This document shows, piece by piece, positions 10,035 to 64,000 of a stretch of DNA of 64,000 bases. The position numbers and the translations under genes are program-made. The number at the start of each line of letters is the position of its first letter. Positions within the stretch are counted from its first letter, which is position 1. Origin of the DNA: Antedon mediterranea (taxonomy: Eukaryota > Animalia > Echinodermata); contig NC_092673.1 of the NCBI RefSeq assembly GCF_964355755.1, positions 23,433,648 through 23,497,647 of the forward strand, in the 5' to 3' direction. The notes under the pieces were generated by a model, which was given only the letters and a program-made list of their open reading frames with translations, was not told where the DNA came from and did no database searches.

Positions 10035-10060
10035 TGCAATATCTGTGAAATTTAAGTCTT

Positions 10061-22681: not shown

Positions 22682-23539
22682 ATGGAAGTGGTTGTTGCAA
22701 CAGTGTGTACTGTTACCTTGTTCGTGTTTGGTTTAATCGGAAATACCTCAGTTATAGCGTTGTTCTTTAAATTTCGTAGTTTACAGACTGTCTCCAATAC
22801 ATTAGTGACTTGCTTAGCCTTTGCAGATCTCGTTGCTACGATGTTATACCCAATACAAAGTCTGGTGGACCTCGATATACTGACCAACAGCCCAGAATGC
22901 ATGACGTTTGTATGCGTTATAATAGTCTTATCTATAGCCCATACTTTCCTTAAGTTGTCACTATCCGTTGAGAGGTACATCACTATCAGTAGGCCACTGA
23001 CTTACACTACCATCTTAACAGAGAGAAGATGCTACATTGCCATTGTCATAATTACTGGATACTCTGTCACGATTGGTATTCTTCCGGTTTTGACGCCATT
23101 TGGAAACACGGGTTCTCATGAAAGCTACTGCAGGTTAGAGACCTTGTACACTAAAGTGTATGTTAGCTGGATTTTTGCAAACTGGATTATTCATCTTCCA
23201 GTAACAATCACCCTTTACATCCGGGTGTTTATTATTGTAAAACGTCACGTCAAGCGTATACAGGCATCGGGATTTAAACTAAAACAGGAAGCGAAGACTG
23301 CTCTTTTGCTGTTCTCTATGATTGTGTATTTCACTATAGTGTGGATCCCATTAATTGCCTTGATTTCGTCTACAAATCCTTCTGAAAAAGCTATGTGGTA
23401 TATAATAACGCATTTTTTAACATACAGTACCTCTGTCGTTAGTTCAATTGTCTTTGGTTTTGGTAATAAACAATATTGCAAACATCTTTTCTCGATTTTG
23501 AAAATAAGAAATACTGAGGAACATCAAATAATTATATAG
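22682..23539 (+). CDS. Class A GPCR, paralogue 2, 285 aa, intronless CDS
   Basis: Highly similar to paralogue 1; GN, LAFAD, ERY, VWIP motifs. Has an 11-aa deletion in ICL3 and lacks the TM7 proline (SVVSSIVF). ORF is intact. Confidence 0.87.
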   Translation: MEVVVATVCTVTLFVFGLIGNTSVIALFFKFRSLQTVSNTLVTCLAFADLVATMLYPIQSLVDLDILTNSPECMTFVCVIIVLSIAHTFLKLSLSVERYITISRPLTYTTILTERRCYIAIVIITGYSVTIGILPVLTPFGNTGSHESYCRLETLYTKVYVSWIFANWIIHLPVTITLYIRVFIIVKRHVKRIQASGFKLKQEAKTALLLFSMIVYFTIVWIPLIALISSTNPSEKAMWYIITHFLTYSTSVVSSIVFGFGNKQYCKHLFSILKIRNTEEHQIII

Positions 23540-30225: not shown

Positions 30226-30919
30226 GTTTAATAAGAGTATATTAACTTTGAACAATTCAACCACACGCGCTGGTTTCACCTAATTTGACATTTATTATAT
30301 TTGCCAATGTATTTAGGTCATTTGACACATTTTTAGGCCTCATCGGCCAAGCTAATAAAATCGATCTGTGCGCTTGCATTACATCTTTTATATAATGACA
30401 ATTCCATAATTTGTTATGATCGATGACGTCAAATGGCTTTGATAAATCCATGTACGTTGCGAATTAATTTATTAAAATTATGTTAACTATGTTAATTATG
30501 GTGGAGTGTTTGTAACTTCTAGTCATTTAAAGTACATATTGTATTTCAACAGGTAGTTATACAATCTGACGGAATTAACAAAATAGTTGTAGAAATAGTA
30601 GTAGAAATAGTTAATAGTTACGGTATAAGTTGACTTACCGATGTTCAAAATAAAATTTGTAGCTTATAACTCCTTCCCGATTGTTTACAATATTTTCCCA
30701 GACTTGAGTAGATCGGACTTCCCCGGGAAGAATTCAGCTTCGATCCAGCTCGGTTTTCGTACACATGATTTCGTGTGGATTTCTCAAGACAGAGGTTTCA
30801 AGTTCAAATCTTTGATCGGGTGTCTGTCGGACATTGTATATATAACTTCATTATGTACAATTTTTAATAACATAGTATTATTTTATATGTTTGTATTTTA
30901 TATAGATTTTTAAATCAAG

Positions 30920-31789
30920 ATGGCAGTGGAAGTTGTTGCAACGGTGTTTACGGTCTTATTGTGTTTATTCGCTTTCATCGGAAATACCTCAATCATAGCG
31001 TTATTCTTCAAAGTTCGTACATTACAGACTGTTTCGAATACGTTAGTGACATGTTTAGCCGTTATCGATGTTGGTATCGCTTCTTCGTATCCCATACAAT
31101 GTTTAGTGGACCTCAAGAAACTATCCGATAATCCAGAATGTATAGCCTTCATGTGTATCATCATGTGCTTATCTGTAGCTCATACATACTTTACATTGGC
31201 ACTATCAATTGAGAGGTACATAACCATCAGTAAACCATTGAAATGCTGTACCATCATAACAGAGAGAAGATGCTACATTGCCATTGCCATAATTTCTGTA
31301 GTCTCTCTCGTGATTGGTATTCTTCCGGTTATGATGCCGCTATTTGGAAACACAGAATCTCTTGAAACCGACTGCCGATTAGCAACCGTATTCATCAACG
31401 GCTATACTGCATGGGTTTTCGCAAATTGGGTTATGCCCCTTCCAGCAATAATATTCCTGTACATCCGGGTATTCATACTTGTAAAACGGCACGTCAAGCG
31501 GATACAGGCATCCGAGGCAGCATCTCACTTGGGTGCGCAGAATTCTGGGTTCAAACTAAAACGAGAAGCGAAGACTGCTCTTTTGTTGTTATTTATGGTT
31601 GCATATTTCATTGTAGTCAGAATTCCGTTCATTCTCGTGGTTGCTGTTACAGATCCTTCTGAAAGTGTTATGGCGTATATAATAACGCATTTTTTTGCAT
31701 ACAGTACCTCGGCTGTTAGTCCATTCATCTTTGGTTTTGGTAATAAAGATTATAGGAAACATTTTCTATCAATTTTGAAGATAAAGTAA
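30920..31789 (+). CDS. Class A GPCR, paralogue 3, 289 aa, intronless CDS
   Basis: Paralogous to 1 and 2; GN, LAVID, ERY, SAVSPFIF motifs. TM6 Trp is replaced by Arg (VRIP). Preceded by acceptor-like TTTTATATAG (30905). Confidence 0.87.
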   Translation: MAVEVVATVFTVLLCLFAFIGNTSIIALFFKVRTLQTVSNTLVTCLAVIDVGIASSYPIQCLVDLKKLSDNPECIAFMCIIMCLSVAHTYFTLALSIERYITISKPLKCCTIITERRCYIAIAIISVVSLVIGILPVMMPLFGNTESLETDCRLATVFINGYTAWVFANWVMPLPAIIFLYIRVFILVKRHVKRIQASEAASHLGAQNSGFKLKREAKTALLLLFMVAYFIVVRIPFILVVAVTDPSESVMAYIITHFFAYSTSAVSPFIFGFGNKDYRKHFLSILKIK

Positions 31790-37349: not shown

Positions 37350-40300
37350 TCAATCGCTGGAAGTTGGAGTAGAGTTTAGTTTGTTGCGTGGCACAAAGTT
37401 GCGTGTATTTGTGTCGGATTCCGAGTCCTCTACATCCACATCACTTTCATCATCGTAACTGACTTCATCTACGGTAGGCATTGAGACTGTTACTGGAAAA
37501 TCTTGTCCCTCCATTTCAGCCTCTGTGAAGTAAACCATTGGTAAAATTAAATTTTGATTTGATTTCCAGAACATAAATTTGATCTCATTTGTAATTAATT
37601 TGTTAATTGTTAAAATCTTTATGGCATTATATAATAAATAATGTAATCTCTTTAGTCGATGAGGACTTCACTTATTTTACAAATGATTTTATTTTAGATT
37701 AGTTTTTCAAGGACTATCTTTTGCATTTGTTTTGCTGCTATTAAGGCCATAACATCATCTGATGCCAATTCAAAATGTAAATGATATTTGAATGTTTGTA
37801 GCATTAATAATCAACTGACTTGTTATTCCAGAATCATGACCTTTTGTGAAATTGTAAAATAAAATAATTGTAAACCATTATGCCTATAAAAATTAGAAAT
37901 ACAAAAACAAAATTGGTCGATATATTGTGAAGGCTAGGAGGTTTAAGCGCATCACAAGTTTGAAATCTCTAAAAAAATAAAACAGAATTGTAACTCTCGG
38001 TGTACACAATTGAGAATTCTTATGTTAACATACACAGTGAATATTGTAAGGTCAAATAATGCAATCATTAATTAGGGTTGTTCAGATCCATGAAGTTATG
38101 CTTTGTATCGCAAGCAATGTCATATTATAATTAGTGTCGTAACAGCAAAGTGTCACCGATTTGGGCGAACATCAGGGGTGGATTGCTATAAAACAGTCTT
38201 AACTGATGGGATGGTCTAACTCCCCGATTAAAGATCAGATAGACGGTCTTACTAAAGCCACCCCTGTTAGACCATTCCTATAAAAAAGGGCGTACTTTGC
38301 GCGTAGAATACCAAATAAGGTAATGTTCGTCATGCTTGTTCAATTCACAATCATAACAGTACGTACGTTTCTACGCAAGAAAATCTATTCTAGGCATAAG
38401 AATAAAATCACAGTTATTATTTGATTTAACACTTAAAAACTCGTTCAATTGGTTGTCTTTGATAAATAATACGTAAAAGCAACAAAAAGAGAAGTTTCAG
38501 ACTGTTTTAAGAACCTTCGAGTAGGCTTTAATTTTAAAGGCCGCTTACAGGTTAGACCGCGGTATAGCAATGGTGTATAAATAAAGACTACTTGCTACGT
38601 CACGAATTATAGCCGGCTAAGTGCTAAGACAGCTTATAGCAATCCGCCCCTGGTATGCAGGATCAAATTTGATAACTTATGTGTTTCATGTGAAACTGTC
38701 CCTTAATAGGAGTGTCTACTGAATACATGTGTCCCAAAGGAGGGTATCTACTATAAGGGAAAAATAATAAATATATTGTCCCTCAAAAACATGACAAATG
38801 ACGATTAATAAAATCAGACTTTGAGGAAGCCGGTTTGCAGTTTTAATACAAACCTACAAAAATAATGATAATAATAATGAACTTTACTTCACCGTAACGC
38901 CCAAAGTGGTGTATTTTTTAAGCTGATTTATTACAAATAGGTAGTTCTAATGTCAAAATAAAATACTGGGGTAATTTAAAAGCAGTGTTGCCAGAAACAT
39001 AGGCATTTTTATAGATTTATTAAAAAAACAACATGGTATATTAGTAAAAACATTTTATTTTCTTTGATTATCTGATTATAAACTCATTAGTCAGAACAAT
39101 TCTTAATGTTTTATATAATTCTAGTTGTGTTGTGAGAAAAAAAACCAATATTTCTAATTATAGATTCTGTAATTCCCAGTTTTAATGTCATTTTCTAAGT
39201 TAGATCCTCTTGAAATTTGAATAAATTATCAGATCGTTGTGAATTTTAATATTTGCAACAGATTTCTCCTCTCCTATTTTGAAGCTCCTCTTTTATTTTT
39301 ACTTCTTCTATTTGCCAACCTAAGCAGATCCCACATGCCCATCCATCACCACTTACCTCCCCAAAATCAAACGTCAAATGATATACTCAGGTATGTTAAT
39401 GCTACGTAACAAATATTGAGGTCCTGATGTGAAATGCATTTTTACCATTTTTAAATTTAACAGTTTTTGATACCATTTCATTTAAGGTCAGCATGTAAAA
39501 TATCACATTTTATATCAAATATTGGTTTTAAATCGTTTTTACTGTGATTGTTGGATTCAGTAGTAATTATTAATTGATTATTAATTATATGATAGTTATT
39601 TAATTTCCCTTAGTTATGCATAAAAACAGTTACTAAAATTGAGATATTCTGTTGATTTGTCATACTATCTTATAAAAATTTTAATTTGTAGATTATTAGC
39701 AGGCCTGCCTTATTTGCATTTTCAAAATACCATTTAACAAAGTCATATTCGTAAGGACTTTCTTCTGTGATTATTTTTATTCATGAAAACCCCATATTTT
39801 ATTTACAGTTGAACATCCCATAAGCGGCCGCACTTTAAAAAGCCTGTTTGTTCTTCCTATCTAATTAGTGCATTTGGTACTTCCCGTAAGCGGCCGCAGC
39901 CACTTTTTTTTAACTAAAACGAAAAATTCGTATTTAAAATAATGGTATCAACCAAACTCCATTTTGTAATTTGTTTATACATTAAATGGAACTCAATACA
40001 GTACTTGGTTGTTTACACTGCTATAAACAAAAACTGCGTAAAAGTTTTTTTGTTTAAAATAAGTATACAAGTTTGTACTTCTTCACTATAGAAAATCCGT
40101 GAAAAATGGCAAAAACATCAACATTTGGATAATTGACCGTTGTCATGGCAACGAAGGATAAACATTAAAATGAATGTTGTAGATATGCTTTTTATTCAAG
40201 TGCCTATTCATGGTCAAAATTTGAGAGAAATCCATTTTTTTACATCTGCCACCAAATCTTTGATTTTTACAGACAAATGGCTATTAAATAATTTTTGCTT

Positions 40301-43300
40301 TAAATTAAATTTTTTAAGGTAAATAATTTTTTTCGATTTTTTTCAATGTAAATAACTATTATGTGAAATTAACAACAACAACAAATTTTTAGGGGGACAA
40401 TATATCTTTAAGAAGTCTCACCTGGTTCTGGTGTTGGGACTTCAAAGATTACTCGTCTGGCTGGTACTGGTTCAAGACGTGAAATCATGGCAGCAAGATC
40501 TGTGAATTGAGTAGGTATTTGTTTCTGCTTTGTCTGCATCTATTTAAAAAAAACTAAATAGGTTAGTTTTATTTTGAATACAAATGATAAATAACAAATC
40601 CAGTATAATTTGTTTGTTTCCTTTTGTCTGTTTGTTTTGGAGTCCCTGACACAAGCATTTGCTTTCTTGGTGATGCCACCATTATTTTGAAATAACTATT
40701 ATTATTATGATGATTATTCTATCATCATCATCATAATCTTCTCTTCAGAACCTCATTTTGGGTAGTCACACATGTGACTCCCTCTTTTCGGTACTTCAAC
40801 TGTCCATGACCAGGGCTACTGGTCTGAAAGATGGACAGGCGAGACGTGAGTAATAATCAAAAACAATCAATCAAACAAATGTATTAATTTAACAATTGAA
40901 AGATGCAATATCAAGAAATGTAATCATTTTTTTTTGTAGGTTTGTAGCTTAAAAATGTTTACATTTAAAAAAAATAATATTTTCACTTTTTAACAACAAT
41001 TGCAACACAGAGATCATAAATAAAAAAACATTTATATACAGTACCTAACCTAAATACATGCATAAAAAAACAATTATTTTCGATAAAAAATAAATAAATA
41101 AAATCAAAATAATAGGACACCTTATTGGAAACCACTTCTCGCTTCTCTACAGAATCTTCGCCAGTAAGTTCCGCTAAGAGTCCACTCTTACCCCAGCCAG
41201 ACAACACAGTCTGTGCATGCTGATACCCTACATCTTTGATCTCCTCAAAACGATTGAAGTGAAGGGTCTTGAATCTGAAACAAAATCAAAATAATGAAGC
41301 AAAAAAAAAACAAACAAACAATTGCAAAACAGTAGGACCTCTATTAAGGGACCCAACAAAGTTTTCCTGAATATAAGTTTGCTTAGTTTAGACACATTTT
41401 AAAAATCCCAACAAACTTTTTCATCCTTTAAAATTAATATTAAAAAGCATCTGGTCTCGGTGTATGGCAGGAAAGCATTCTGTTCTGGTTTATTTCTCTC
41501 TACTTCCTTTTGAATCAATTGGAACCCATTTTCCTCCATCTGAATTATGTCGATGACATGTTCAGTCAAAGAAGATATATGTTATAAACCACTCTACCAT
41601 TATCTTTTTTCTATTTATTGAATTATTGTATAGTAACCTCATTGTAATATTTTTTCCTATTTTCTTAATGGTGGTCTCTGCTTAAAGTCTATTTCTAGAA
41701 TTATTTTGACCATCATCCACATTTATGTAATACTTAATGATTTATAAAAAAATTATTATGTATTACTTGTGGAAATCAAACAACAATAGTTGTATATATA
41801 AATAAATTGTATAATTAGCGTTCTAAAATGAAAAAAAAATATGAAAAACTCACAAAGAGAAATTGTTCTTTCTGTGTAAAATATTTTAAATTGAGATGGA
41901 TAATAATGATCATGTATAATGAAAGTAATATGTTATAATGAGGTTTGGAAACAAAGAGGTTATTTAGACCAAACTTCTTTTGTAAGTGTATTGTAAAATA
42001 TAAGAAAATTAATGAAGAAAGGAGGTACTGTAATACGGATTTCAAAAATGTTACTGATGAAGGATGTTATGATTGTAAGTAATGACATGAAAGATAATAT
42101 GAATGTGAATAAAAGTGGAGTTTACGCCAAAAAAGAAAAAAAAAAAACAATAAAAGTGGGCTGTAGTGTTAAATAAAACATTTTCATTTGTTTGATTCAT
42201 ATGAAACTGCCTTCTTAATAGTTTTGTTCCCTGGTCATGAGATAAATTATAGTGATATTAATGCCTGGTTTTTGCATCACAGAGGGACACTTAAATCTCT
42301 ATGTCCGATATTAGAAATTATTTTACATACAAAAAATAATATACTCTGACGCTATAATAATAGAAAAGAAAATCTTTCTTATTTTCATTAGTGAATTTGT
42401 ATTTTGATAGGACTGTAACTGTTTGCACAACACAACAAAAATAATGATAATGGTTGTAGCTATAATAAGAACTGACAGAAAATAATTTTATAGATCAGTG
42501 AAACACAAATGGAGTATATAATGATTACAGAAGCAAAAAAGTATTATACACGGCTGGGTGTTTGAGCCTACACTATAAAACTAGTTGTGATGTGCCCAAA
42601 TATGGTAGTGATATACCCAAATATGGTAGTGATATGACATCACATTTTTTTTGTCACATACAATTTGAGAGTGTAGACAAAGCTTAAGATATTATGCCAC
42701 ACAACCGTACATAAAAGTATGTTATAAATGAGCAAAGTGAGATGTACCTCTATCTAACTAGTACATTATATTTTTACCTATCAATTGGAGGTCTTATATA
42801 TTCACACATATCATTCTTCATAAGCTCTTCTTTCTGTTTCATACATGATACATAAGCTAGTCTGCTTTGGATGTCACTCATGTCAGGGACCTAAAACGAG
42901 AAAATGAAAAACAAAGAAATGAATTAAGCTTTTCTTGTTAGCTTCAACTCAGAGCACTAAATACATTTTTTGAGTTTTTTTAATCATTGTTTTTTTTTAT
43001 TGTCAATTTTATTAATTTTCAATTTTATTATTTTGTCAAGGGTGCAAATTAGCTTAAAATATGCATCCTCCATGTACATGGATATGTTGGACGTTTATGT
43101 AAAAAATATAAAATATTGAATTGAAACAAAACAGATTCAAATTCATTTGTGACAAATGCAACACAATGAGGGGGTTGGAAATACTAGTAACTATTATAAA
43201 GATATTGACTGCTTGAGGTTAAATATAAGATTTGACATCCCCGAGGGAATGATATTATGTTCGAGGAATATTCCCAAGAACTTAATATCATTCCCGAGGG

Positions 43301-46300
43301 GATATCTAATCTTATATTTTACCGATATAAAAGGCGATATCTGTTATATTACATAGCCAACAACAAGTAGAATATCTGCTGGGCCGGGTAGCTAGGCTAG
43401 GCCTCCTTTTTGTATTGTATGTATGTAAACAAGATGCCCAGACACCTTACCTTTCGAAGAATAATATACAGATAATTACTACGGTAATTAATGATTCCTT
43501 GGCAATGAAATATTCACTAGCCTAGGTCGTTTAAATAATAACAGAAGAATTTCCATCAATAAGCCTACATTAATAATAATATTATCAGGTAGGCCTAGGC
43601 CGAATAAATAATAATTCGTCTTCATACTTCGAGCCGAATCACCGGATGTTCAGTGCGTCGCGCGCGTACCAGTTACTACTGTGAGTATTAACCAATCAAG
43701 AAACGGTGTTTCATCACATCTAGGGAGGACTAAAAATAAATGAGGGCGCTATGTATGCATAGTTTAAATAGTTTAGATGATTAATTTCTTCAAGCAAGTT
43801 CCGTGGCGCAGCGCATGAAGCGTTGTCTTGTGATGTAGTGACAATTTCATCGCGAGTTCAAGACCCAGTAGATGACTTTTGTTTATTTATCGGCAAGCGC
43901 GAGTGTTGCCACACGAAATTTACTCAGTCAATATCATCGTTCTCGAGGATATATACAATTTACAATCCTTGCAGTGGTAGTCATGTGATGCAGTTTCAAC
44001 CAATCACGTTCGCGTATTTACATAGGCTATGTAATATAACCTAGTAGTTTGTAATGTTAGGTGTTTTGTATAATATTACACTTTTACAGTATTTATATTT
44101 GTATACAGTAGTAGAACCTGTCCTATTAAGGGGGCACTTTTTTGGTCCTGTCCCTTTTATATAGCTTTTACTGTAATTATTCTAATGTGGCAATGGAAGT
44201 CAAATCTACTGCAAATGTTACCACAATATGTTTTTAAAAATGTCTTACTTTAATTGCCTCTGACCAAGGATTCCAACGTTTCCAGAGAAGCCACCAACCA
44301 GATAGTTCATCTCCGTAATTGGTGAGATTGGTCTCATCTACACTGCCGACATCTACAGCAATCACGGTCTGTGCACCCATCGCCTTCATAATGTCAGCTG
44401 AAACAAAGAAAGAAAGTTTTAATAAATCCAAAGACAGATGCTGCAGTATTAACTATTTTTTTTAAATTTTTTAATATTTTAGACGATGTAAAAAATATTT
44501 AACAGACCCAATAGCGTCCAAGCAAAAAATTACTATAGTAATAAATAAAACAAATAAAATAAATTTTTATTCTTATTATTTTAGTCGATGTAAAAAAACA
44601 TTTAACAGAGCCAATAGTGTCCAAGCAAAAAAATTACTGTAGTAATTTAAAAAAAAAATGATAACTAACCTAAATAAAACAAATAAAATAAAGTTTTATT
44701 CTTATTATTTTAGTCGATGTAAAAAACATTTAACAGAGCCAATAGTGTCCAAGCAAAAACATTACTGTAGTAATTAATAACAAAAAAAATTGATAACTAA
44801 CCTAAATAAAACAAATAAAATAAATTTTAATTCTTATTATTTTAGTCGATTTAAAAAACATTTAACAGAGCCAATAGTGTCCAAGCAAAAAAATTACTAT
44901 AGTCATTAAAAAAAAAAATGATAACTAACCTAAATAAAACAAATAAAATAAAGTTTTATTCTTATTATTTTAGTCGATGTAAAAAACATTTAACAGAGCC
45001 AATAGTGTCCAAGCAAAAACATTACTGTAGTAATTAATAAAAAAAATGATAACTAACCTAAATAAAACAAATAAAATAAAGTTTTATTCTTATTATTTTA
45101 GTCGATGTAAAAAACATTTAACAGAGCCAATAGTGTCCAAGCAAAAAAATTACTGTAGTAATAAAAAAAAAAAATGATAACTAACCTAAATAAAACAAAT
45201 AAAATAAAGTTTTATTCTTATTATTTTAGTCGATGTATTGTAAAAAACATTTAACAGAGCCAATAGTGTCCAAGCAAAAAAATTACTGGAGTAATTAATA
45301 AAAACAAATAAATAAAAAATAAATAGATAAATAAAATAAAACAAAAAAAACTCCCTTTAATACAATTATTTAGCAAATATAAGCATATTTTTCCCACATC
45401 AGTATTACTGTACTTAAACACTGTGTATGCAGGGAAATTATAACAACATGTACAAATAAATTGTGCAATTGGAATATTAACCAACTAGGCAATTGAATAG
45501 CACTAAGAATGTAAATAAAACAGCTCAGAATTGCCTGTGAATTAATTGCTTCATCATGATTTTTATTAACCATTGACTTTATATATATTTAGCTTTTGTA
45601 GTCGGATGAAAATATGCTATGATGAACATTGAAAAGTCGTAAACTATAGAATTTCTACATATGGAAATGATCATCTGATGGTCATCATGCAGATTGTAAA
45701 TGAAACAAATTATTCATTTCAAAACATGTAGCAGTATTTTAATGAAATAAAAGCATGCTTAACAAGAATATAAATTTGAATTTGTAGCCAAATGTTTTTG
45801 TTACGGCCATGAAGTTTCTATTGGAACACAAAACAATGGGATGGGGTAGAAACGGTTTTCAAATTTGAATTTTTGTATCACAGTCTGATCTCTAAGATAG
45901 AAACCAGTAGGTGACATGATGGATTAGAAATGCATTAGGATTGTCTATGTCCACACAACAATCTGTAGACAGTGCAAAAAGGTAGAGTAGTGAATTTGAA
46001 AGCGTAATCATAAAAAGTAATTAGAGAGGAGGATATACAGGAATAGCAAAGAATGTAAGCTTGGCTACAATAGAAAGGAGAAACCAACAATACAATACCC
46101 ACATAATTATAACAAAGAGACTAAAATTAGTGCTGCAAAACATGCTTATACAATTGCACCAATAAAATTGAGGCGAAGATGTACGACCTGGTGACAGGAA
46201 GCGATCAATTGATCTCACCTGGTAGATTATTCACATAACCTCCGTCCAAAAGCAGATGACCGTCTTTTGGGTCACATAACGGTGGCAAGTAGCCAGATAG

Positions 46301-49300
46301 CGACATACTGGCCCGGACATACCTCCAGAGGGAGCCTGCAAACATAACAGTTGATTAGCATAAATAAGACATTTGGTATCTTATGCAAATTAGTCCTCAC
46401 CTGGCAGATTATTACAATATGCACCGTCGACCAAAAGGTGGCCGTCACGGGGGTCACACAGTGGCGGCAGGTACACTGCCACCGACATGCTGGCTCGGAC
46501 ATAACGCCAAAGCGAGCCTGAAACAGAACAGGTGATAGGGTGTGAATGTTGTAATGCATGTTAGTACATTGTGATAACAAAATCGACTTCAGTTCGAACA
46601 ATTTGAAAAAAAGGATTTGGAATAATTTACAAAATGTCTTGATTTTAACTTTCTGTGTGTTAAAGGTAACATTCATAAGATAATGTATTATGTTTATTTT
46701 TTAATCACTGTATGATAAGATTATGTTGTTTATTACATATAAATCGAAAGACAAATTACTGAAAAAATGACAATTCTGTGGGTATTAGTGGCTGGATCTT
46801 AACGAAGATACAAAAAAAAAAAGTGAAAGCTAAATCAAACGATAAAGTAAAAGAGCCAGAAAAGTTAGCAGAGCTTTCAGGCAACACTAGCCCTTCATTA
46901 GTGCAAGTATACATATTATTATTACATATGACCTCTGTTTCATAAAATTCAAACAAATGTTAAAATAATACAAAAAAAATAGAATGAAACAATTTATCAG
47001 ATCTGCTTTATAAAATGTGTAATAATGCTAACATAAGCAAAACAACAATAAGCTTGACATTGGCAAATTACTAAAGTTGTAATTGTTTAACAAACATCAT
47101 TACTAAAACAGTGTTTTCAAAGTATTGCGCTTTCGTCACACTCAAGAAAAATTCTTAATTTTGGATTAAATTGACGTGTTAGTTGCTATGGTGACACAAT
47201 AAATTCAAATACAAACAATAAAAATTAAACAAATATTGTTTCTGTAAGTATCTAGTAATAGTATGTACAATCAGTATTACGTATAATTTGAACTTAAAAG
47301 TTAAAAAAAATGCCATGCTAAAGTGGTTTATCAGAAAAGGACTTTGAAGAAAAATAGATATTAATTAAATCAGACTTTGAATAGGTTATTTTGTAGTTTC
47401 AATCAAGTTAATCCCTTCCATAAAATAAAAAAAATGTTTTGTCACATAAAATGACAAAATAAATGGTAAAATTCAACCAAAAACCCATTGCTGGCAGCCA
47501 ATTTGACTATTTTTTGCTTTAAATTACAGTTTTTCCAGGTAAATTTATTCAATATTATGTGACACTAAAATGGCATATTAAAAAAAAAAATTTTTAACAA
47601 TTATCTTTTCAGGTACACCCTTTATTAAAGGGACACTTTCACATGCAATGAGCAATATGTTTTAATTAATACAGCCTACTAAGGCTACACTTTTTAATAA
47701 GGGGACAAATATTGTTGTGGTCCCTTTAATAAGGATTATACTGTATTTATGTCTAGTTATGCATGGAAATAGTAGTAGTACCTATACACTCAGAATATCA
47801 CTAATATAAACTGCGTTAAAAGTTAAAAGGTGATCTGGAAGTTATTACTGTCCCTCAATATAGAGTTTAATACATATTTACAATTGCTCATTTGATGTGT
47901 CCCAAAGCAAGGGTTGTATACTGCTTGACTTTGTCACAATATAATTGTTTTACATGCCACATGCCACCAGCCAAACCACAAAGCTACTGATTCTCCTAAT
48001 CTGCAATCTGAGTTACCATGAACGCAATTTTAATCAAGTAATCTGTCGCTGGCTTTATAACTATAATTCTATTATTTTTTGTAGCACATTTTCTACATAC
48101 AGACTCATACAGTTGATAATGTTATTGTGCATCTCATAGATAAAACTAATTAGTTATATAGCTACAAATTTTCATTAATTTGTTGAAAAGATTTCACATG
48201 AACATTTAGTTGCCATGGTGAAAAAATACATTAAACTGCAATAAAGATCAATATTGTTTCTATATATAAGTATTTAGTACATCCCAATGCAGCATAATTT
48301 AACCTTAAAAGTAATAATAATAATAATATCAGTTATAAAGACAACATGAAAAGAAAAAACACTATTGAAATATGCGAGTTTTTAGGAGAGATTTAAATTG
48401 AAAAGGGGATGAAATGTAACGGATGGAACAAGGAAGTTGGTTCCAGATCTCATGTGCTTGAGTAGAACCCCCCTCCCCCTTAAGACACCTCTATTCAGCA
48501 GGTAACCCAATTAAGAACGCAATTTAAAATGAAACAAACAAGTGAAAATATATGTTTCAACAATCGCTATTCAGGGGATATTCCAATTCAGGGGATATCC
48601 CAATTTAGGGATATCCCAATTCAGGGGATATCCCAATTCAGGGGATATCCCAATTCAGGGGATATCCCAATTCAGAGGATATCCTAATTCAGGGGACAAT
48701 TCATTGGGTCCTGAAGTAAACATTTTACTGTATAGTGTAAGTTTTAAAAAAATGACTGGAAACCAACCTGATGTATGGATCCTCATTTGTGAGACACTGA
48801 TATCTGTTGTGATCGTAAAGTATGGAATCCACAAGTCTTCTATTTGTTTTTCTGCAAACACATCTTTGATAGTTCTATTAAATCCCCGTCCTAATAGAGA
48901 AAAAAAAACAACATTGATATTTTGAGTAACAGATTCATTTTCTATTCATTTATTTTATTCAGCCAGTAAAAACAATACAAAAAATACAATACAAAGATGA
49001 ATTTCATTGTAGGCCAAGGACGCCAAAATTAAACCAAACAGCGGGCCTGGCAGTCTAAAACCCTTTTCACATCTGCATAAATTGTTAAAACTTGTGACAA
49101 CTTGTAACCAGGTTTGATCTCCCGATTTATTACACGTTTTTATACAAGAATTCGCGAACCCTGAGAAATCTCGGAAGAAGAATTATCATCAAATGCTCAT
49201 TTTGATGAAGCAGTCTAAACACCTGCATTTTAAAATGTCATAATTTTAATAATCTTTCAATCCAGTTTTTCAGGTCTGGAGCACAAATAAAAACATACCT

Positions 49301-52300
49301 GAAAACATAGCTGTGAATGGATATGTAAGATCAGCCAATTGCTTCCAGAATGAGGTCATGACCTTTGACCAGTTCTTTGCTCTAACCTCCATCTTCTGCC
49401 AGCTTAGGTCCTCACAGTACAATGCACCATTAAAAGCACCGATACTGACTCCTCCTACCATGTCAATTGGGATTCCATATTCTTGCAGACCTCGTATGAT
49501 GCCAATTTGCGAGGCACCTCTGTAACAATGAAGCATGTGGACTTTGTTTTATAACATTGCAAAATATTTTAAATAAATCATGCGCTAAAAAAATATCTTG
49601 AAAATCGTGTAAAGAAACATAAAAATCAAGTAATAATAAACAGCAGAACCCCTATTGGAACAGATTAAAACCCCAAAAAAAGTGTTCCCGGAGTAGGGAT
49701 TGGCCATAGTGTTAAAACATATATTTCTCCTTGTCCATTTGACAGGAGTGTCCGCTTAATAGGGGTGCTCATTGAATAGGGGTGTCCTAAAGGAGTGGTT
49801 CTACTATACTACTTAGTATTTTCAGTCCAAGAGCATTAGTTCATAAGTATAGGCAGACCTGCAAATTTTTTGTAACAAGCTGATTTTTTCAGAAAAAGTT
49901 CAGAACTCCAACTCCATCTTAAATTTCTCGGAGAGCACAAGGAGGATTTTTTAAGACTTTTAGTATGATGTTCCAATCATAGTTCTGGACCTTTCCTGAA
50001 AAAATCAGCTTGGTATGAAAAATTTGGGGTCAAACCCTAAATGGTCTTGCTCTCTATTTGCCACTAATAAAACATATACTTACTTAGCCCCACCACCACC
50101 AAGCACCAATCCTATTGAGGTACCAGTTAGAAACCGTGCCACTCTTGAGAAATCTGAATGACGATCTGGTGGTTTTTGAAAAAGTTTGTCATAAGTTTCT
50201 CGTTGCTTTGCCGGAGACTTTTTTGAGAACATCCGCCTAGGACATCGGATGTGATGATGAGTAACGCACCAGCCGCGAGCATTGAGCCACTCAGCCGTTC
50301 TCGTCGGCGGCTTGTATCTTGAATCTTTTTCTCGGTGGAGCAACATCAGTTCTTTTTGAGCACGAACTGCAAGGTTTTCTAATTGTTCTTCCATCTCACT
50401 GATATCATTTGGATCTTTATCTGCTAATGCCACAATTAAAATGCAATCAGCCTATTACAATAAAAAAAGAATATAACACATTACCAATAGTACATATTTC
50501 ACATATTAATGTTATAATTATTATTATTTATTAATAATAATATAATCAAGAAAATAAACAATGGAACATTAGAACACCAGCATATATATATTATATTTTA
50601 CATATTTTAAATAAAGAAAATTTAAATCATGATTATAACATTAAAAAATACCATATACTAAATACACAATTCTAAAACATCCATATTTAAACTAAACAAA
50701 GCAATGAGATGACTAAATAAATAATTGGACAATATAACAATTAATAAATAAAGCAATTAAATTAATGCAAATCTTTCATGTATATTTGTTGCTTTTTTCT
50801 TTCCCCTGTCTATAATGATGTACAGCTATTTTTTTTAACTTGGTGATTAAAACCATATGGGCTTATTTGTATTCTACAGACACAATAATATTGTTCAAAT
50901 TTTATTATAATAAAATGTATAGGATAAATCTATACAGTATATTCTCTCACCTGACGAATACACCTTTGTGTCCATGGGGTCATCTTATAATCAGCCTGAT
51001 AGAGGACAATACGATGAAAGTCTTCCTGTAAACCTAACCAACTTGTTAACCGGAACTCATGTATACTGTCAATGTTGTGAAATAAAGTCTTAATTAAATA
51101 ATAATAATCGGATTCCATCAAAGCTAAATTGTTTATCTAACTCAGTAGGAGGAGCTAATTACTTAATTAGACCTCAATTAGCATTTCCTGTCACCAACTT
51201 TGGTGCTTAGTGCACATAATTATTATTGTTTTGTATTCACTTGATCTTGAAAATGGTTCTATGATGGTACCGAAACGTCGATTTCTCTTTTTGTCATTAA
51301 ATTTTATATTGAAATTAAATAATAACACAATTATTTAAGGCTTAATAGTACAGTAATTATGAAATCAGATGGGCAGAGTCTTTGAAATAAATAAATAAAA
51401 CGTCAATGTGTGCATTTCTAGTAAAAGGACACCTTTCATACGGAGGAAAATCTGGAATAGAAACCTACTTTGTAACACCTCGAAGGACACACTAATAAAG
51501 GGACACTTTTCTGTAAAATGAATGACACAAGGGGAAACATATGTTTGACCCCTACTCTGTGGTCATCCTTATAAAGGGAATACTTTTTAGGTTCCGAAAG
51601 TGTCCCTTAATTGGCTTTCCACTGTAATTAATGCTTTTAGCATCTCTTGTAAACAGTCACCCAAAAAGTTGTTGACAATGAATTCAATTACAGTATCAAA
51701 ATTGATCGGCTTTTTTTTTCATTGGGAAAACCATAAAATATCGGTTAAAGCTCAATAAACTCAAAGGCACTCAGTCCACTTAGTTTCAACTGTATACTCT
51801 TTCTTGTTGCAATTAAGGGTTTATTAAAAATATGTTACCTATCAAGAGCAGCACTACCAAGTGTCTTTAATATATAGTCACTGGTTAATCGAAGACATGG
51901 ACCTGCAAGTAATGATAATCGATCAATTTATTATATTATTCCAGATATTATCAAAATAATGAATGTTTATGAGTTGAAATGGAAGCATAATGTATAGTAT
52001 AATGCATAATGTATTTGAGGTGTTGCGTAGCGGTAGACGTTTACGAATCCATCATCTCTCATCAAAATAGATTTTGTATCAGCTTTTATCCAGCTGCCAT
52101 TCGAGCACTAAATGCTTGTCAGTATACAGTACGAGAGTGATGTGACATTTTGTAATTGTTTTTTTTTAGTTTTTCATCTGTTTTTGTATATCTCAGAGCA
52201 AACATAATATCTATGTATATTTTATATGCAGATTACAATAAATGGAAGTCATTTTCCACTTATGAATGAATTAATATTTGTATGCGGAAAATTGTTTTAT

Positions 52301-55300
52301 TCAACAGTAGAACAGTCATGCTTTCAATGAATGAAAATATTCTCACCATTCAATGATTTCAAACCATTCATTATTTGTTTTAACACACCTACTTCTATAG
52401 TAAAACTATTCAATTAGGCCATTTTCATCTTGAAACTGATATTAAATGATAGGCCATGTAAACATTTGGTGCTTAGATTTTGGCCGTGGTACAGTGCAGT
52501 GGCCTTTTACAGTTAGGTTTCTCATTGCATAATAGTCATGTTGCACAACAATTTTAATTTTTTTACAGAAAGCTGCAACAGTAGGCCTACCTTCACTTTT
52601 TTTAAAAGGAACGTACAGCATGTGATACCAAATCATCAAATGGTACGTTTTCACTCAGGGACAGGAATATATTTTTGTGTTGTATTTTTTTACAGGCTGT
52701 TAGTCTACAATTACTATTAAATTTTTCGTTTTTATACATTTAGGAAAATTGCAAATGATAACCATAAGCGAATTCATTCACTATCCTTCTTAAAGATGGC
52801 AATCCCATTCACAAAACAAACATATACTCAAGATACTCTACATAAACAAAGTCTTATTACAAGTCTTTGGGAGTGAACTTGTAGTTTTGTCATTAGAAAA
52901 AATCCTGACATATTGACAGGATTTGAACACAGGACCCTTGGATTGGTAGCCAAGCATCATAACCACCAGACCACAACTCCACTCCACTTCATGGATAATT
53001 GTTCATAAATCATAACTTACCTATTGCACAAAGAGAATGGCAGAGTTCTTGAGCAAAGTTTGAGAGAGGTACTTGGTCTGAGGCAGCTATTATTGCACAC
53101 GTTGACAAGTTATCAACATTTGGGGGACTACCACGGACACCGACATTTTGGGAAATTGCTGAAGGAATATAATAAATAATATTTTCTATGTAAATTGGAA
53201 TTGTAACACCAAATGACTGAAAATTAAAAATATAATATTTAAATTATTTCATTATTATATTTCAACAGTTTGACTCTGAAAATCTGTGGGTGTGCGGTCA
53301 TCCACAAAAATGTTAACACAACACAAAATGTGCTCAGGCGAGTAATTATTTATTTAAGTTTTTAAGTGTTTACAACAAGACCAGTCAATTCTGGCTTATG
53401 AGTGTACAAATATATTATATAGCAATAGACAGATAAAAACAAAATAACAAGTTTTAATGTTAAAATAGTTGACTAAAGTGACAGTGGTAAATCAAATAAC
53501 TATGCATTGCAGCTAAAAGTTGCACAGTGATAACCAATTAAATAGTGTTTAACACAATTTATTTTGAATGAATTGAATGCTATTTTTTATTTTCCATAAG
53601 AAACAGGCCTCTAAAAATGTTGATATTACTCAGAAATACAATTGAATATGAAAGCTATAACAGTCAGGGGAAAATGGCAAAAGGTTTTCTACTTTCTAGA
53701 ATTTTTATCAGATAATCTATATTGTTTTGACAACTCTTGTAACATGATCATATATATTACGTCTGTAGCAATAAAATATATTGTTTACCTCTGAGTGGAT
53801 TTGATACATTTTTTTCTTTCACCTGTCCAACAAGTTTCTGACCAAGTATCTCAATGAGTCTGGTGACAACCTGAGGGAACTTCCTCTTTATAAGAGTCAG
53901 CATACCAGATGGTAACATTGCCAGCTCAGTATCTCTAAAAAACGCAATGTCAATAAGCCTGTATTTCTTCACCTAATTGTTCTTGACATGCTATCCCTTA
54001 AACCAATACTTTCCGTTTCTTGTTTCTTAAGCTCTTTCTGCACCATCAAAAAAAGTGTGATGTGCCTAAATATGGTAGCGCTATGACATCATCATATCCA
54101 TATATAGGCGCATCAAATTTTTTGTTTGTCACATATAATTTAATAGTGTAGATAGAGCTTTAATCAGTCAGGGTCACCTTTTAAGTAAACCAGCCCTTTT
54201 GAAACCAGACTATCCTGGCCTATAGTAAAGATGTATTGTCCCGTTTAAAAAATAATTCTTACACATTTTTTTGTTAAATATGCCATTTTAATGTCACCTA
54301 ATAGTTATCCACTTTGACCAAAAATTGGATTAAAAAAAATGTTTTTACCTAAAAAACTGTAATTTAAAGCAATAAATAGTCAAATTGGCTTCCAGCCAAT
54401 GGGGTTTTGGTTGAATTTTAACATTAATTTTGTCTGGTTTTTTTTTATGAAAGTGATTAACTTTATTAAAAGAAAAAAATTAATCTATTCAAAGTCTGAT
54501 TTTATTAATCTTTATTTTTCATGTTTTTGGGGGACAATACATATTTAAATTGATTCTGACTGATTGAGATAATGTATACGTTACCTAATAGCATGTACTG
54601 TAGTAATTCTTTCTTTCTGTGTAAGAACTTCAATCATGCCAACCATCTCGCCACGACCAAATTCTCCTAGCAATTCTTTCTTACCATTTGGTAGTGTGAT
54701 AACAGACCTCAAACGTCCATTCAATACAATGTATGTGCTGTCACCCTCGTTACTTTGCCTGCACACAAAAAAAACCCCAGAAAAACAAACAATAAGTCAC
54801 CTCTGTCTAACCAGGATAAAGTACCTTAACAGCAATTTTGCTGTTTTGGGATTGGCCAAAGTTCAAAATGTCAACTTCAAATTTATGTAACTAAAAAGAG
54901 ATTGGTACGTTATTTCACAATTTCTAAACTGAAGATTTTTTGTTGTTTACAAAAACTACTATTCAACATCTGACTGAATCTTGTTTTTTATAGGTGACAC
55001 AAAACACTGGTCAACAAATCTTGTTCAATGTAAAGATGACATCATTTCACAATATTTGTTCAACATTTTTAAAATGAATTTCCTTAAACAACTGCACTGA
55101 AAACGTCATTCTATTTTTGACATATCTCCCACAATGCATAACATAAACAAACATAATTTCTAATGTGAGGTCAACAAATCTTGTTCAATGTAAAGATGAC
55201 ATAATTTTAAGATATTTGTTCAAAATATTAAAAAATGGATTCCCTTAAACAACTGTATTGAAAACATTTTTGACATACCTCCCACAATGCGTCAGGACAT

Positions 55301-58300
55301 AATGAATACATTCTAATGTGAGAATTAACCATGTTTCACTGACCTATACAGGGCTTTACCGGCTTCTATCATCATCCAATCAAGAGCAAAGTCAGTCTGC
55401 CGAACAAATGATGAGAGCTTTCTAACCACAAAATGACCAATCTTTAAAACAACTTCAGGTTTATTCCTCATAATACTGTAATAGGAGATATTTTGAATCA
55501 AAGATAAAGTAATGCATGACAAGTTAACCAATCAAATGGCTCAGATGTGTTTTAAAAACTTGATAAAATAGAAGTGGAAGAATTGTAGTGGAGCTGTAGC
55601 TTGGTGGTTAATGTGCTTGCCTTCCCAATTCCAAGGTCCATGGTTCAATCCTGAGCTAGTGCCAGGGTTGTAACTAACGACTCTTTCAACTCCACATCGT
55701 ATACCTCAAATGAGACTTATTATAAAATAGTTTATCCATCCTGTAATTGGCGAGTTTGTGCTCGCTGTTGGATACGTATGCGATAGACATATGAATTTAA
55801 AAAAAAAAAGTTTGTCCTCGCATTCGTAAAACCAGGTTCAGTTTTTTCTCACTGATTGTACTTAAACTATAAACAAAAAATAATGTCATACCTGTAAAAA
55901 CTGGTCTTGCTAATTACGACAACTCTAGAATAAATAAGTGCTTTAACAGTAAAGAAAGCAGGCTCTCCAGTAAGGACAGCTAACTCTCCAATGAATTCAC
56001 CTGGATGTGCTTTAAATACACCCTTCTCTTCAGCACTGTCCACCGTCTTCTGCATCATGCCAAGTTTACCACTGACGATGAAAAATAAGCTGGCATCCTA
56101 CACAAAAATTAATACAATATATTATCATTAATAATAATATCCTGGATTTATATAGCACCTAATGTTGTGAAATCTCTAAGAGTTGAACTTTATCACCTCG
56201 GTCAATTTTTGCATCAAACACGTATGGAAACATACTCCCATAATGCAGCTAGTAATCAGCACAAAATTGTGTCTTGATTTAACAGGGGATCAATTTTTAC
56301 ACCTGGGTGGAGAGAGGCAAAGGTAAGTATCTTGCCTAAGGATACGAGCAATGCGGTGAGAGTTGGATTCGAACCACAGTCTCATGATCAGTAGTCCAAC
56401 ATCCAACACACTGCGCCACACACCCTTACATATATATAGATACATTTGTTAATTATCCAATTTAGAAATTTACTAAACATTCCCATAAAACATTATTTTT
56501 TTACATACATATGCAAATAATATGTTAAATAAAGTCCCACTTTTTGGACACCATTATTCAGTAGACACATTTATTAGGGGAATATTTTTGTGGGCTTGAC
56601 GGTTCTACCCTTTTCGGGTCCTAATATATGGTGATCAAATTATAAAAATTTAAGATGCAAAAAGTTAGAAAGTAAAATTGATTCCAATTGAAACTTGTGT
56701 TGGGTAAGCCATTACAAAACAATTATTGCAACATACATCTGATGCATTTGTTTTGCAGACAAATGAAACAGAGTATTCTCACCTGACCATGTGTGATCGT
56801 ATATTCAAACGAAAATTACATGGACTTAACAAAGCGAATGCATTACCTGATCACCTTCGTGGGTTAAAATGCTACCAGCGTCAACATGAGCTAACTGAAG
56901 ATGTCCATCCAGATAGGCCTCATCCTGACAATAAATAAACAAAAATTACAACAACAAATGTTACAGTATTATTTATAATTATTTAAATCTGTAGTTTATG
57001 GTCAAATTACATTAATATATACTCTCTATGGTACAATTTATTTGAATAAATAGGAAAGAAAATATGCTTAAAATGATTATGTTTCACAAAGTTCTGACTT
57101 ACATCACAAAGTTCTGACTTACCTCACAAAGTTCTGACTTACCTCACAAAATTCTGACTTACCTAACAAATTTCTGACTTACCTCACAAAGTTCTGACTT
57201 ACCTCACACATTTCTGACTTACATACCCAAAGTTCTGAATTACATCACAACATTTTAACTTGCATCACAAATTTCTGACTTACATAACAAAGTTCTGACT
57301 TTACCTTACAAAGTTCTGACTTATCTCACAAAAGTCTGACTTACATCACAAAGTTCTGACTTACCTTACAAAGTTCTGACATAATCTCACAAAGGTCTGA
57401 CCTTCATCACAAAGTTCTGACTTATACATAACCCAAGTTATGATTTACAGTACATAACCCAAGGTATGACATGCAATACAAAGTTCTAACTTACCTAACC
57501 AAAGTTCTGACTTACATAACCAAACATTCTAACTTGCATCACAAATTTCTGATTTACACCACAAAGTCATGACTTACATTACATAGTTCTGATATACTAT
57601 ACAATGTTGTGACTTACATCAAAACCAAATAGTTTTGTTAGATCAGTCTGTGCCAAGGCCAATATATCATCATCTGAATACATGCTATCACCAGACTTGG
57701 TTCGAGATCTTGTAGTTGTTCCTAGTTCCTCACTTATCTGTGTTGCTAACTTTCTTGGTTTCTCTAGTGGTTTTCCATCAGCATCCTATAAATAAAAAAA
57801 CAAACATCATCTTTAAGCTCTGTCTACACTATCAAACTTTATGTGACAAAAAAATGTGCTGTACATATATATGGACATGATGATGTCATATCACTACCAT
57901 ATTTAAGCATATCACTACCATATTTGGGCATAAAGTTTAATAGTGTAGACAAAGCTTTAAGCTCTGTCTACTAGTGTGACAAAAGAGTGTGATGTGCCTA
58001 ATGGTAGTGGTATGCCCAAATATGACATCATCATGTCCATATAGGGGCAAATAACATTCTTTTGTCACATGAAGTTTGAGCTTTAGATTGCTTAAGTAAT
58101 TCAGTGAAATCCTTTTCTTCGGACACCCCTATTAAGGGGACATTTTCCTGTGAAACAAACATTGAGAAGTATATCATTATACACTTTGGCCGACCCCTAT
58201 TCAGGGGGACACCCCTTGGACACCCCTTGGACACCCCTTTTTTGTGTATGAAAGATGTCCACTTATTAACAAGGGTTCTTCTGTATTGAAAAGGTTTTCA

Positions 58301-61300
58301 ATTTAAAGTATCATTTTTCTTTTATAATATTTATAATGAATCAACTGCAAAATATATTATTAAATATTAACATTCTGATCTCTATCAGTGAAGTTCATTG
58401 GAAAAAAAAACCAAAATTTGTTAAATTCTTGTTGGTTATAAGGCAACACATTAAGTTTTTGCAAAGATATTTATCGACTAAATAAATCTAACTGGCCTTT
58501 ACAAAAGTCATTCAATTCACATTTTTCAAAGAAATTTACTAATTTAAAACGAAATTTGAGTTGATTGATTGTGTTTGCTAAAGTTATTAGAGCACCATCT
58601 CAAATAAACTATCTCACACTCACTAATGTATATCACATTTGTAATTGTCTGTGTGGGATTTATTTTTAATTATTCGAACGAAATAAAATGGTCGTGATAA
58701 TATCAAATGATTAAGTGTGGTCTAAATATTGAGGTATTATAAATTGGCTAGATTGGTAACTTCAATGTTATTGCAGTTGAAAAAGTGATTCACTGTGGAG
58801 AGGGTGCACAGAATTTGGCTGCAGCAATCAGCCAATCAGATACAGCCAGTCACGCCCACTACACAGTCACGCACCACTACACCTGTATTGAATGTATCAA
58901 CGAAAGAGCGAATTCCTTGCACGTACAAATGTACATATCAAGAAATTATCCAATTCATTGCTATTAACAATATAATTGATTCAATAAAAATTGTGCTGTG
59001 CTTTAACAATAATATTGTTACATATAAGACATATTGTGTGTTATATATATGAAGTATATATATTGTAGGATTATACTCTTTACACTATTTTTGAAGAAAT
59101 ATAAATCAACCATTTTGAAAGCCCTATCCCTGTGTTTATCACTTTGCTGTCGGTCTATCCTTACCCTAATATACCTCAATGGGTCTAAACCATATCTATG
59201 TCATTGCGGTAAGGATTTTTGACAACAGACATACTGCTGAAATTGAATGATGTCCAATAAACTTTGTTTTTAAAAAACTGAAATTTTTAAACTTTGGTTT
59301 AATAATATTCTTCTAGTCTATGTTTTTTTTATTACAAAATTGTCATACCTTGGGTACATCTTCAAGATTTAGTACCCTAGCCCTACCAGCCGCTGCTTCA
59401 AAATCTGATGGACTCATACTCATTCTATTGTGACCAAGTTCAAATGCAGTTGCTCTTCTGATCAATTTTGATGTGGAGGCACCCTCTGTAAAAACAAAAC
59501 ACAAATAAAACAATGTAATTAAATCCGAGGGAATATAGAATTAAAGACTTATGAACACTCCAGTAAAGTTATTCTACACTCTGAATAAATGCCCTATTCC
59601 CATGAAAGTTGATAGTCTCAACAAATATGAGCCTTACACATAATTAACGAGTACAAAGGTATTGGAGTATATCCATTTTGATTATACACACAAAAAAGAA
59701 TTAACCAGACACATAGAAGTTATTAGGGAGCTTTTGTATTGACCTAGTACCAAATGTTAAATCAACTTGTGTATACAGGGACCTTTTTCTTCCTTGACAC
59801 CGAATTCTATGACCAGACAACCACCATTAATGCATAGGTCATTAGTCCTAGGTTGTAGCTAATCAGAAACTCTCTATTAATTATTTAAGAACTTACGGGA
59901 TGATGTTCGTTTCACACGACCTTCATTTTCACTATCTGAAGTTGTACTCATGTATCTTTCTGTTAAAAAAAACCAAAAAGATAATCATTATTTATATACT
60001 ACAGAATATTTTACATACAAAAACAAAATACAACAAATCGTCAATTTGTTATGTACAAAATTTGGCTCATCACCAAAAAAGTTCATCTTTGTTTTTAATC
60101 CAGAGATAGATGGTGAAAAACAACAATGTGGAAATATTTGTATTCTCTTCATATACCCTACTCTTTAGGGAAAACCTCCTTTATTAAAGACTTCACGCAC
60201 AATACAATTACATAGCATTTGATTATTGACCAATAGATAGGCCTAACATTCTTGTTTTGGCCATGTTCAATTTGGCCATTTTTTTATTTTTTTCTTTAAT
60301 TTGAAAGAATTTACAATTTGGGGGAAAAAAACCCACTTTTCGCTAGTTCTGACCTTAGAGTGAGCGTATTTGACCTTAGCATGATTGTATAAATTTTTGA
60401 TTAAGGTTTACTGTCTGTTCACAGGATTATATAAAGCTTTTAAATTCTGGAAACACCCAATAATAAGTTTACCTCCTCCCTTAATGAGTAACTCTCGTAT
60501 TTTCTCCTCATCTTGATAATCTATGACTCTTGTAACTTTTTCACTGCTACTGGAAGAGCTTGCTAGTGATTGGATGCTTATTTTCTTACTAGGGCTAACT
60601 TTTGGTGATAGTTGATGGATAGATAGTTTTGGATCGCTTGTGTCTTCCTATATACAAAGTGGGATAATAAAACTCATTATTCACATACTTTTCTTTTGTT
60701 TAGTTTCTTTTTCATTATCGAACCAAATGCTACATTTTATCTTAATGTGCTACTCAGTAAAAGGGGAACGCTGGCTCTTAGAATTTAGTTCCTTTTTGTG
60801 TGATCCTGCTACTTTTACTTCGTGGTTCTTCTGTTGTTGTGTTTGTGATGTTTTGGCAATAAAATAAATAAGAATAAAACCATTGCAACATCAATCATAA
60901 GCAAACAAAAGATATGACTATCCAATTTACAGGCAAGGAAGAAACCTACGCAATTTCAACTACTTTCCTAAGCGAATTTTTTTGAAAAAACCAAGGATTA
61001 TATATCACCATTTAAGTCAAATTGATAAATCGACCTCTGGTCCGAGAAAAGAAACAAACAATACAAAGTTAGTTAAAATCAAAATCGTATGGCATTTAAT
61101 GAACAGGCAAACTGCCTTAAAATACTGACTTGTTTCGATTTTGATCTTAACTCGAAAGTTTGGTATCATACATGATTTATCTGACAAAGTTAGTTATTTT
61201 TAAATTTACCTTATTGATTAACTCATGTGATAAACCTAGATAGTTATGAAGGGTCTGGAATGTTACTCTCTGAAGACGCACCATGATCATCTGAACGACT

Positions 61301-63559: not shown

Positions 63560-64000
63560 CTTTAAAAAAGAATAACAAATAAATACTGTACATGATCTAT
63601 TAGTATTAACACAAAAGAAGCAAATTGTTTCAAATTAATTAATTAAATTTCAGTATATCACTGGGCGGTTTCGAATTAATGTTCATTGCCTAATGTGTTT
63701 ATATATATAAATTAAAAGTATTTCTTCGGAGATCCCGCCTATAAAAAATACTGAAAGATGAGGGCGTATCAATTTGATCTCCGGTGCGCATGCGTACAAC
63801 TGAGGACTAGTGCTGTTTCGCACTTTATTAGTACAATTCTAATGATTTTGATACCCCATGTGTGCAATTAGCAAACATTTTTTATAACAAAAATGAAGAT
63901 TCCGACACAATTTTTGCAGCAATATTGGATCCAAAACAGAGGATAATTGTCTAATTTATAGTAGTTTCAAACCTTTCCAGTACAAATTGGGTTATTTTGA

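Follow-up and report, generated by a model that had tools for sequence, protein, structure and literature searches.

A tandem pair of exons encoding two versions of the segment that bears the catalytic aspartate of NTE is already in the literature, both for human PNPLA6 and for sws of the fly. The supplement of Martinez Gomez et al. (2021; PMC8373072) lists the human pair as event 164 (ENST00000221249 versus ENST00000646984), two 39-residue exons of 117 nucleotides (nt) each that lie 85 nt apart with the variant upstream, and gives Bilateria as their common ancestor; Drosophila sws is judged there to share the pair "on the balance of probabilities". The same pair appears in the tables of Hatje et al. 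(2017; PMC5740500) as cluster 1435, phase 1-1; there the variant is the minor exon (7.9 versus 322 in brain and 64 versus 476 in spleen, in the units of the table), present at a low level across many tissues, and a pathogenic Boucher-Neuhauser variant is located in the canonical exon. Here we characterize the corresponding exons of the crinoid Antedon mediterranea, contained in a 64,000-nt stretch of contig NC_092673.1 (positions 23,433,648 to 23,497,647 of the forward strand; "the window", whose first letter is position 1 in all coordinates below). The crinoid case is an instance of this catalogued bilaterian pair and mainly adds an echinoderm data point on the pair's age. We hold with considerable confidence that the crinoid NTE gene carries tandem copies of the catalytic-Asp exon, likely an ancient bilaterian pair and likely spliced singly, in which the downstream copy (exon B, DGG) is the main form and the upstream copy (exon A, DGA) is likely minor and predicted to differ in activity or substrate.

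The host gene is the A. mediterranea orthologue of NTE/PNPLA6-7/sws. Its RefSeq model protein (P0001) was placed on the window by tblastn, and Pfam assigned to it three cNMP_binding domains, NTE_Ploop and Patatin, the domain set of the NTE/PNPLA6-7/sws family. The human catalytic dyad is formed by Ser1014 and Asp1134, within the motifs GTSIG and DGG (10.1101/2023.06.09.544373; PMC10291501). Both motifs have counterparts in the crinoid gene, the serine in GVSIG and the aspartate, which is position 31 of the duplicated exon, in the DGG of exon B and the DGA of exon A. Lysophospholipase/phospholipase B activity and organophosphate sensitivity are traits of the family and are predicted for the crinoid enzyme.

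Exons A and B show the anatomy of homologous mutually exclusive exons: they are adjacent and homologous, each is 117 nt long in phase 1-1, with a CAG acceptor, a GTGAG donor and an open frame throughout, and their coordinates and translation agree with those given by an earlier reading made from the letters alone (the sequence-only reading). The peptides differ at 7 of 39 residues and the DNA is identical at 82 of 117 nt. Among the 38 whole codons 15 are identical, 16 differ synonymously and 7 non-synonymously, which corresponds to proportions of synonymous (pS) and non-synonymous (pN) differences of 0.73, near saturation, and 0.15. The pair is an old duplication with protein-level constraint on both copies, as the sequence-only reading had claimed. 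Because the 16 synonymous differences stand in register and a DNA run from the same organism (X5) reads contiguously across both exons, the pair is not an assembly repeat; chance likeness and assembly duplication were both ruled out on the synonymous codon differences, everything else being in register. Over 45961-46660 the same DNA run showed 0 of 7 substitutions within the 234 exon bases (around 0.06 by hand), a result too weak to be used. The 65-nt intron that separates the copies is the shortest of the 24 introns of the gene, the next measuring about 407 nt (boundaries approximate). When the exons were joined in silico to their flanks (48768 and 44397), A alone, B alone, A plus B and neither exon all stayed in frame, and the expectation that double inclusion would keep the frame proved right.

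The crinoid pair coincides with human event 164 in exon position, length and phase. The two share the gene family, the 39-residue catalytic-Asp exon, the upstream place of the variant and a short intervening intron, and the human variant, like crinoid A, retains DG, has lost the third Gly and has Val before the Asp. They differ in the variant sequence itself (SVAVY, DGA and YC in the crinoid versus SYCPY, DGC and YV in human), in the intron (65 versus 85 nt) and in the divergence between copies, which is 7 residues in the crinoid versus 12 in the mammalian pair examined. Drosophila sws and the arthropod NTE genes likewise have two copies at the same position and a variant signature VDG[C/A/V] (supplement of PMC8373072; RefSeq sws isoforms); there, in contrast, the canonical copy comes first, the gaps are 473-697 nt in the insect-like loci examined and the variant retains Gly15.

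Evidence for the two forms within crinoids comes from one sequencing run and from annotation. Run X1 was taken as RNA-like by guess; some of its contigs are spliced and others genomic, and rare forms tend to be lost from contigs. Its 3,678-nt contig passes from the upstream exon to B and on to 44397, skipping A, with GT..AG ends at the downstream joint and a loose end that was assigned to the upstream exon by eye, so that the two junctions foreseen for a B form, 48768>46335 and 46219>44397, were both seen. In Anneissia japonica, the PNPLA7-like models XP_033114500.1-502.1 include two isoforms with B (X1 and X3) and one with an A-type exon (X2). The X2 peptide is identical to exon A at 39 of 39 residues, Anneissia B departs from exon B at one residue, and isoforms X1 and X2 differ solely at 8 positions, all in the duplicated block. 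Both forms are annotated in Anneissia, whereas only B is annotated in the species of the window. The claim that two isoforms exist with different catalytic-Asp segments is borne out by the Antedon contig with B together with the Anneissia isoforms, and exon A is conserved and annotated as alternative in crinoids; in Antedon it is presumably spliced in the same way.

For a wider comparison we assembled 32 sets with 34 variant copies, a sample biased toward proteins holding both copies, drawing on a collection of proteins and on 9 of the 16 metagenome loci with multiple copies; the excluded loci were L011 and L034 (variant with a two-residue deletion), L015, L021 and L031 (split variant), and L024 and L033 (near-duplicates of L022). 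Asp31 and Gly32 are retained in all 34 variant copies, and Gly33 is replaced in every one of them (Cys in 25, Ala in 8, Val in 1), as is Leu13, while Val occupies position 30 in 30 of the 34; crinoid A bears all of these marks. A maximum-likelihood tree of 47 exon copies from 23 sets separated variant from canonical copies on a branch with 98/97 support, and in the same tree a clade of crinoid A plus B was rejected by the approximately unbiased (AU) test (p-AU 0.005); with 39 columns, no root and selection likely shared between copies, this is support and not proof. Crinoid A groups with the other variants and not with its own canonical copy, and likely derives from an ancient bilaterian duplication. 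The sequence-only reading had supposed that similar exons exist in other animal NTE genes and that the duplication may be old, not a novelty of this gene; human event 164, sws and the exon tree agree with it.

Upstream copies with SIAVYLPP, close to the SVAVYLPP of the crinoid, occur in L001, L002 and L034, and the first two of these loci (L001 at 101-1600, L002 at 67-1589) have three exon copies, variants with DGA and DGC followed by the canonical one. Single copies were detected in 8 of the 12 loci in which the canonical exon is bounded by introns and the two flanking exons are in view, and loss or absence of the variant is therefore common. Each of the vertebrate PNPLA7 models seen contains one copy. 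Variant-only forms occur among hagfish, marsupial, fowl and Nasonia models, and in L076, a rotifer-like contig, the variant is followed directly by the downstream exon. A search of 50% representatives returned fragments only, with 16 variant-type and 130 canonical-type matches. A tree of constitutive exons placed L011 and L034 close to chiton and nemertean on weakly supported branches; L040, L053, L054 and kin, which have single copies, formed a group outside the named clades. We claim no phylum for either set. Three loci were also observed in which the variant seems split by extra small introns and the canonical copy is whole (L015 1174-1437, L021 777-963, L031 2857-3051).

Human missense changes near residues 1112-1122 lead to very low activity (10.1101/2023.06.09.544373), and counting from Asp1134 these residues are exon positions 9-19. 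The exchange of L-S-G for V-A-V at positions 13-15 thus falls in a sensitive segment, because nearby human changes have that effect. Exon A is not obviously dead, since it retains the dyad Asp and human PNPLA5 has DGA as its native motif (PMC10291501). We therefore lean, without great assurance, to an A isoform that keeps the Ser-Asp dyad and would have lower activity or a shifted substrate rather than none. A difference in substrate or organophosphate sensitivity, raised as a possibility by the sequence-only reading, is conjectural. AlphaFold models of the catalytic domains of A (Anneissia X2) and B (P0001) were uninformative and went unused, their predicted local distance difference test score falling below 50 across the exon-containing residues 117-180. 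A PDB search gave no NTE structure among the best 60 matches listed, the patatin part matching only bacterial PlpD (5fqu/5fya). No assay of the variant isoform turned up in the literature searched, which lacks most subscription papers, and searching on sws isoform names found nothing. The function of the minor isoform is of interest, as the exon carries the catalytic Asp of an enzyme that is both a neurological-disease gene product and an organophosphate target; the crinoid pair, with copies 7 residues apart, is a simple natural pair for learning what the swap does.

In the mechanism that we propose, the catalytic-Asp exon of NTE (PNPLA6/7) would have been duplicated in tandem in bilaterian ancestry and the pair retained by crinoids. 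One exon would be used at a time, B giving the main DGG enzyme and A a probably minor DGA variant; joining of A to B would be prevented by a 65-nt intron too short between the A donor and the branch site; SF1 and Quaking may set the choice through ACUAA sites flanking A; and the A isoform would differ from B in activity or substrate through the change beside the dyad Asp. With respect to the intron, the sequence-only reading had its length and the CTAAT at intron positions 43-47 right, and missed a second CTAAT at 8-12 as well as a TACTAAC 44 nt upstream of A. In the two CTAAT candidates, which are predicted branch sites, the adenine lies at distances of 11 nt and 46 nt from the exon A donor, and a CTRAY consensus precedes both alternative exons and only 2 of 22 other acceptors (boundaries approximate). 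Steric exclusion has a threshold of about 50 nt between donor and branch point (PMC5740500; PMC7969005). A steric block is plausible in Antedon because both candidates lie no more than 46 nt from the A donor, under that limit, and we consider it slightly the better bet that double inclusion is blocked in this way. The arrangement resembles OGDH exons 4a/4b (PMC7969005) in that branch candidates lie within about 50 nt of the upstream donor, one of them at 11; it differs in that the OGDH branch points were experimentally mapped and lie far from the acceptor, whereas the crinoid ones are predicted and the whole intron is 65 nt.

As for the choice between exons, ACUAA branch sites of mammalian cells are contested by SF1 and Quaking (PMC13004596), and a local cluster of ACTAAY sites is therefore a lead for the switch. 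Three such sites surround the pair (46565, 46394 and 46131) against 0.17 expected, with a P of 0.0008 that is uncorrected and concerns a cluster noticed before testing and one of 4 motifs counted. Exon choice through SF1/Quaking competition at the sites flanking A is, in our judgement, rather unlikely. Neither a local hairpin nor long-range RNA pairing over the splice sites was supported against shuffles: a hairpin of the 65-nt intron was no better than shuffled sequence (z 0.32), none of 12 probe-intron pairs in a docker/selector-type comparison over the splice signals beat all 20 shuffles, and the best long-range pairing was equalled by 2 of 20.

Several observations weigh against a single ancient pair with exclusive use of its members, among them the limits of the exon tree and of the ACTAAY statistics given above. 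Concerning origin, the order of the copies is not constant, the variant being first in chordates, the crinoid and rotifers and the canonical copy in arthropods and L009; B is the only copy in all 21 models from other echinoderms and in all 6 from hemichordates (annotation, not genomes). Both facts would suit an exon A that arose independently in crinoids, or repeatedly in animals, and converged through repeated selection near the Asp, as would the 7 differences between crinoid A and B, fewer than in most pairs (6-15), the re-duplication evident from the three copies of L001 and L002, and the caution of the supplement of PMC8373072, which goes only as far as the balance of probabilities in grading common ancestry. 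That account is nevertheless improbable: the crinoid-only clade was rejected and the variants form one side of a well-supported branch, synonymous sites are near saturation, position, phase and order are as in human, and nearly identical upstream copies of the xAVYLPP type exist in non-crinoid loci. Concerning usage, both exons occur together in many models elsewhere (5 of 7 in hagfish, 9 of 15 listed in marsupials, 8 of 15 listed in galliforms and 4 of 7 in the Nasonia group, clusters that come from a search favouring two-copy proteins and are annotation counts with read support unseen), and both are also held by many of the RefSeq/UniRef models for PNPLA6 of vertebrates and sws of arthropods among proteins P0123-P0357; such models reflect either genuine inclusion of the two exons or an artefact of annotation that is widespread. 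Of the 13 other multi-copy loci that are intact, only 3 have copies less than 100 nt apart (41, 85 and 86 nt), the gaps of the rest ranging from 151 to 1136 nt. Steric exclusion is thus not the conserved mechanism across loci, and the steric claim of the sequence-only reading stands as plausible for Antedon and fails as a general rule, most other gaps exceeding 100 nt and two-exon models being many. Nor did ACTAAY enrichment recur near the exons of 12 other loci (1 seen, 2.2 expected). L036 is a case of its own, with just 41 nt between copies (2352-2392), and a strong candidate for steric exclusion.

The same two-copy models, frequent in vertebrates, insects, amphioxus and rotifers, would fit a cassette A that can be added to B, with an A plus B protein, its catalytic segment doubled, or an inactive by-product of this type made regularly; the frame-preserving length of 117 nt and the occurrence of short gaps (L036, 41 nt; L009 and L026, about 85 nt) point the same way. 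We give this little credence for the crinoid gene, since none of the 4 crinoid models contains both exons, the sole spliced contig skips A, both branch candidates lie close to the A donor, and PMC5740500 took in-frame clusters only where exon-joining reads were absent and has the human pair in its cluster tables. A-to-B joining was not found in the one low-depth contig set of run X1, from which rare forms may have dropped out. As for exon A itself, its junctions were not found in the X1 contigs (one run, low depth, rare forms dropping out), it is covered there only by one 165-nt contig extending into both introns, the Antedon RefSeq model carries B only, and the proteomics column of event 164 is empty (PMC8373072). 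The missing junction is not evidence of silence, because contigs drop rare forms. An unused pseudo-exon left from an old duplication would account for the crinoid part of this and yet is extremely improbable: the exon is 39 of 39 identical to that of Anneissia, against 91% identity over the whole catalytic-half region, its splice sites are intact behind a perfect TACTAAC, pN is far below pS, and it is an annotated isoform in Anneissia. A catalytically dead decoy that tunes NTE activity down, with no altered specificity, accords with the position of the swapped residues 13-15, in a stretch where missense variants leave the human enzyme with very low activity, with the loss of the third Gly in every variant copy and with the minor status of the human variant. 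It has a small share of our belief, as the catalytic Asp and the next Gly are kept in all copies and DGA is natural in PNPLA5; moreover, an off-switch needs no conserved C/A/V signature, as skipping both exons also stays in frame.

Joined into one proposition, these elements would mean that bilaterians kept a second NTE active site, with the Asp retained and the following Gly and residues 13-15 replaced, and with another lipid specificity or organophosphate sensitivity, which in the crinoid is switched by SF1/Quaking and locked by the 65-nt intron. We consider this combination less likely than not; if true, the minor isoform in humans could act as a modifier of PNPLA6 disease and of organophosphate neuropathy.

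Table 1. Features of the A. mediterranea NTE locus, in window coordinates.
Feature	Position	Strand	Basis and details
Host gene (NTE/PNPLA6-7/sws orthologue)	37353..63561	(-)	about 24 exons inside the window, 5' end past 64000; tblastn with P0001 and Pfam
GVSIG nucleophile motif (catalytic Ser), single-copy exon	49438..49452	(-)	P0001 mapping
Upstream flanking exon (...MRIHTS)	48768..48890	(-)	100% match to P0001; 3' end is the contig loose end joined to B
TACTAAC, candidate exon A branch site (A at -44), also ACUAA site of SF1/QKI type	46560..46566	(-)	putative function
Exon A, variant copy (SVAVY...VDGAYC)	46401..46517	(-)	39/39 with Anneissia X2 XP_033114501.1; Pfam Patatin positions 151-186; catalytic Asp codon 46428-46426
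Inter-exon intron, 65 nt	46336..46400	(-)	CTAAT candidates at intron positions 8-12 (46393-46389) and 43-47 (46358-46354)
Exon B, canonical copy (SLSGY...LDGGYV)	46219..46335	(-)	spliced on both sides in the X1 contig; used in P0001; catalytic Asp codon 46246-46244
ACTAAT, third site in the local ACTAAY cluster, 88 nt beyond the exon B donor	46126..46131	(-)	noticed post hoc; putative function
Downstream flanking exon (ADIMKAM...)	44249..44397	(-)	joint 46219>44397 with GT..AG ends, run X1

The introns on either side of the pair contain repeats, an AT-rich tandem repeat of about 128 nt downstream of exon B (around 44480-45290) and a short-period one upstream of the pair (48570-48700). Elsewhere in the window, on the forward strand, exon-like open reading frames (ORFs) resembling an F-box/leucine-rich-repeat protein extend over about 2400-10050, with a long simple repeat in an intron (around 4900-7500). 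Three similar intronless ORFs with an ERY motif and hydrophobic segments form a tandem cluster on the same strand (16623-17606, 22670-23536 and 30914-31786), which we take to be rhodopsin-family G-protein-coupled receptors. Between the first two of them lies a broken reverse-transcriptase-like ORF (19841-21022, forward strand), probably the remnant of a long interspersed nuclear element.

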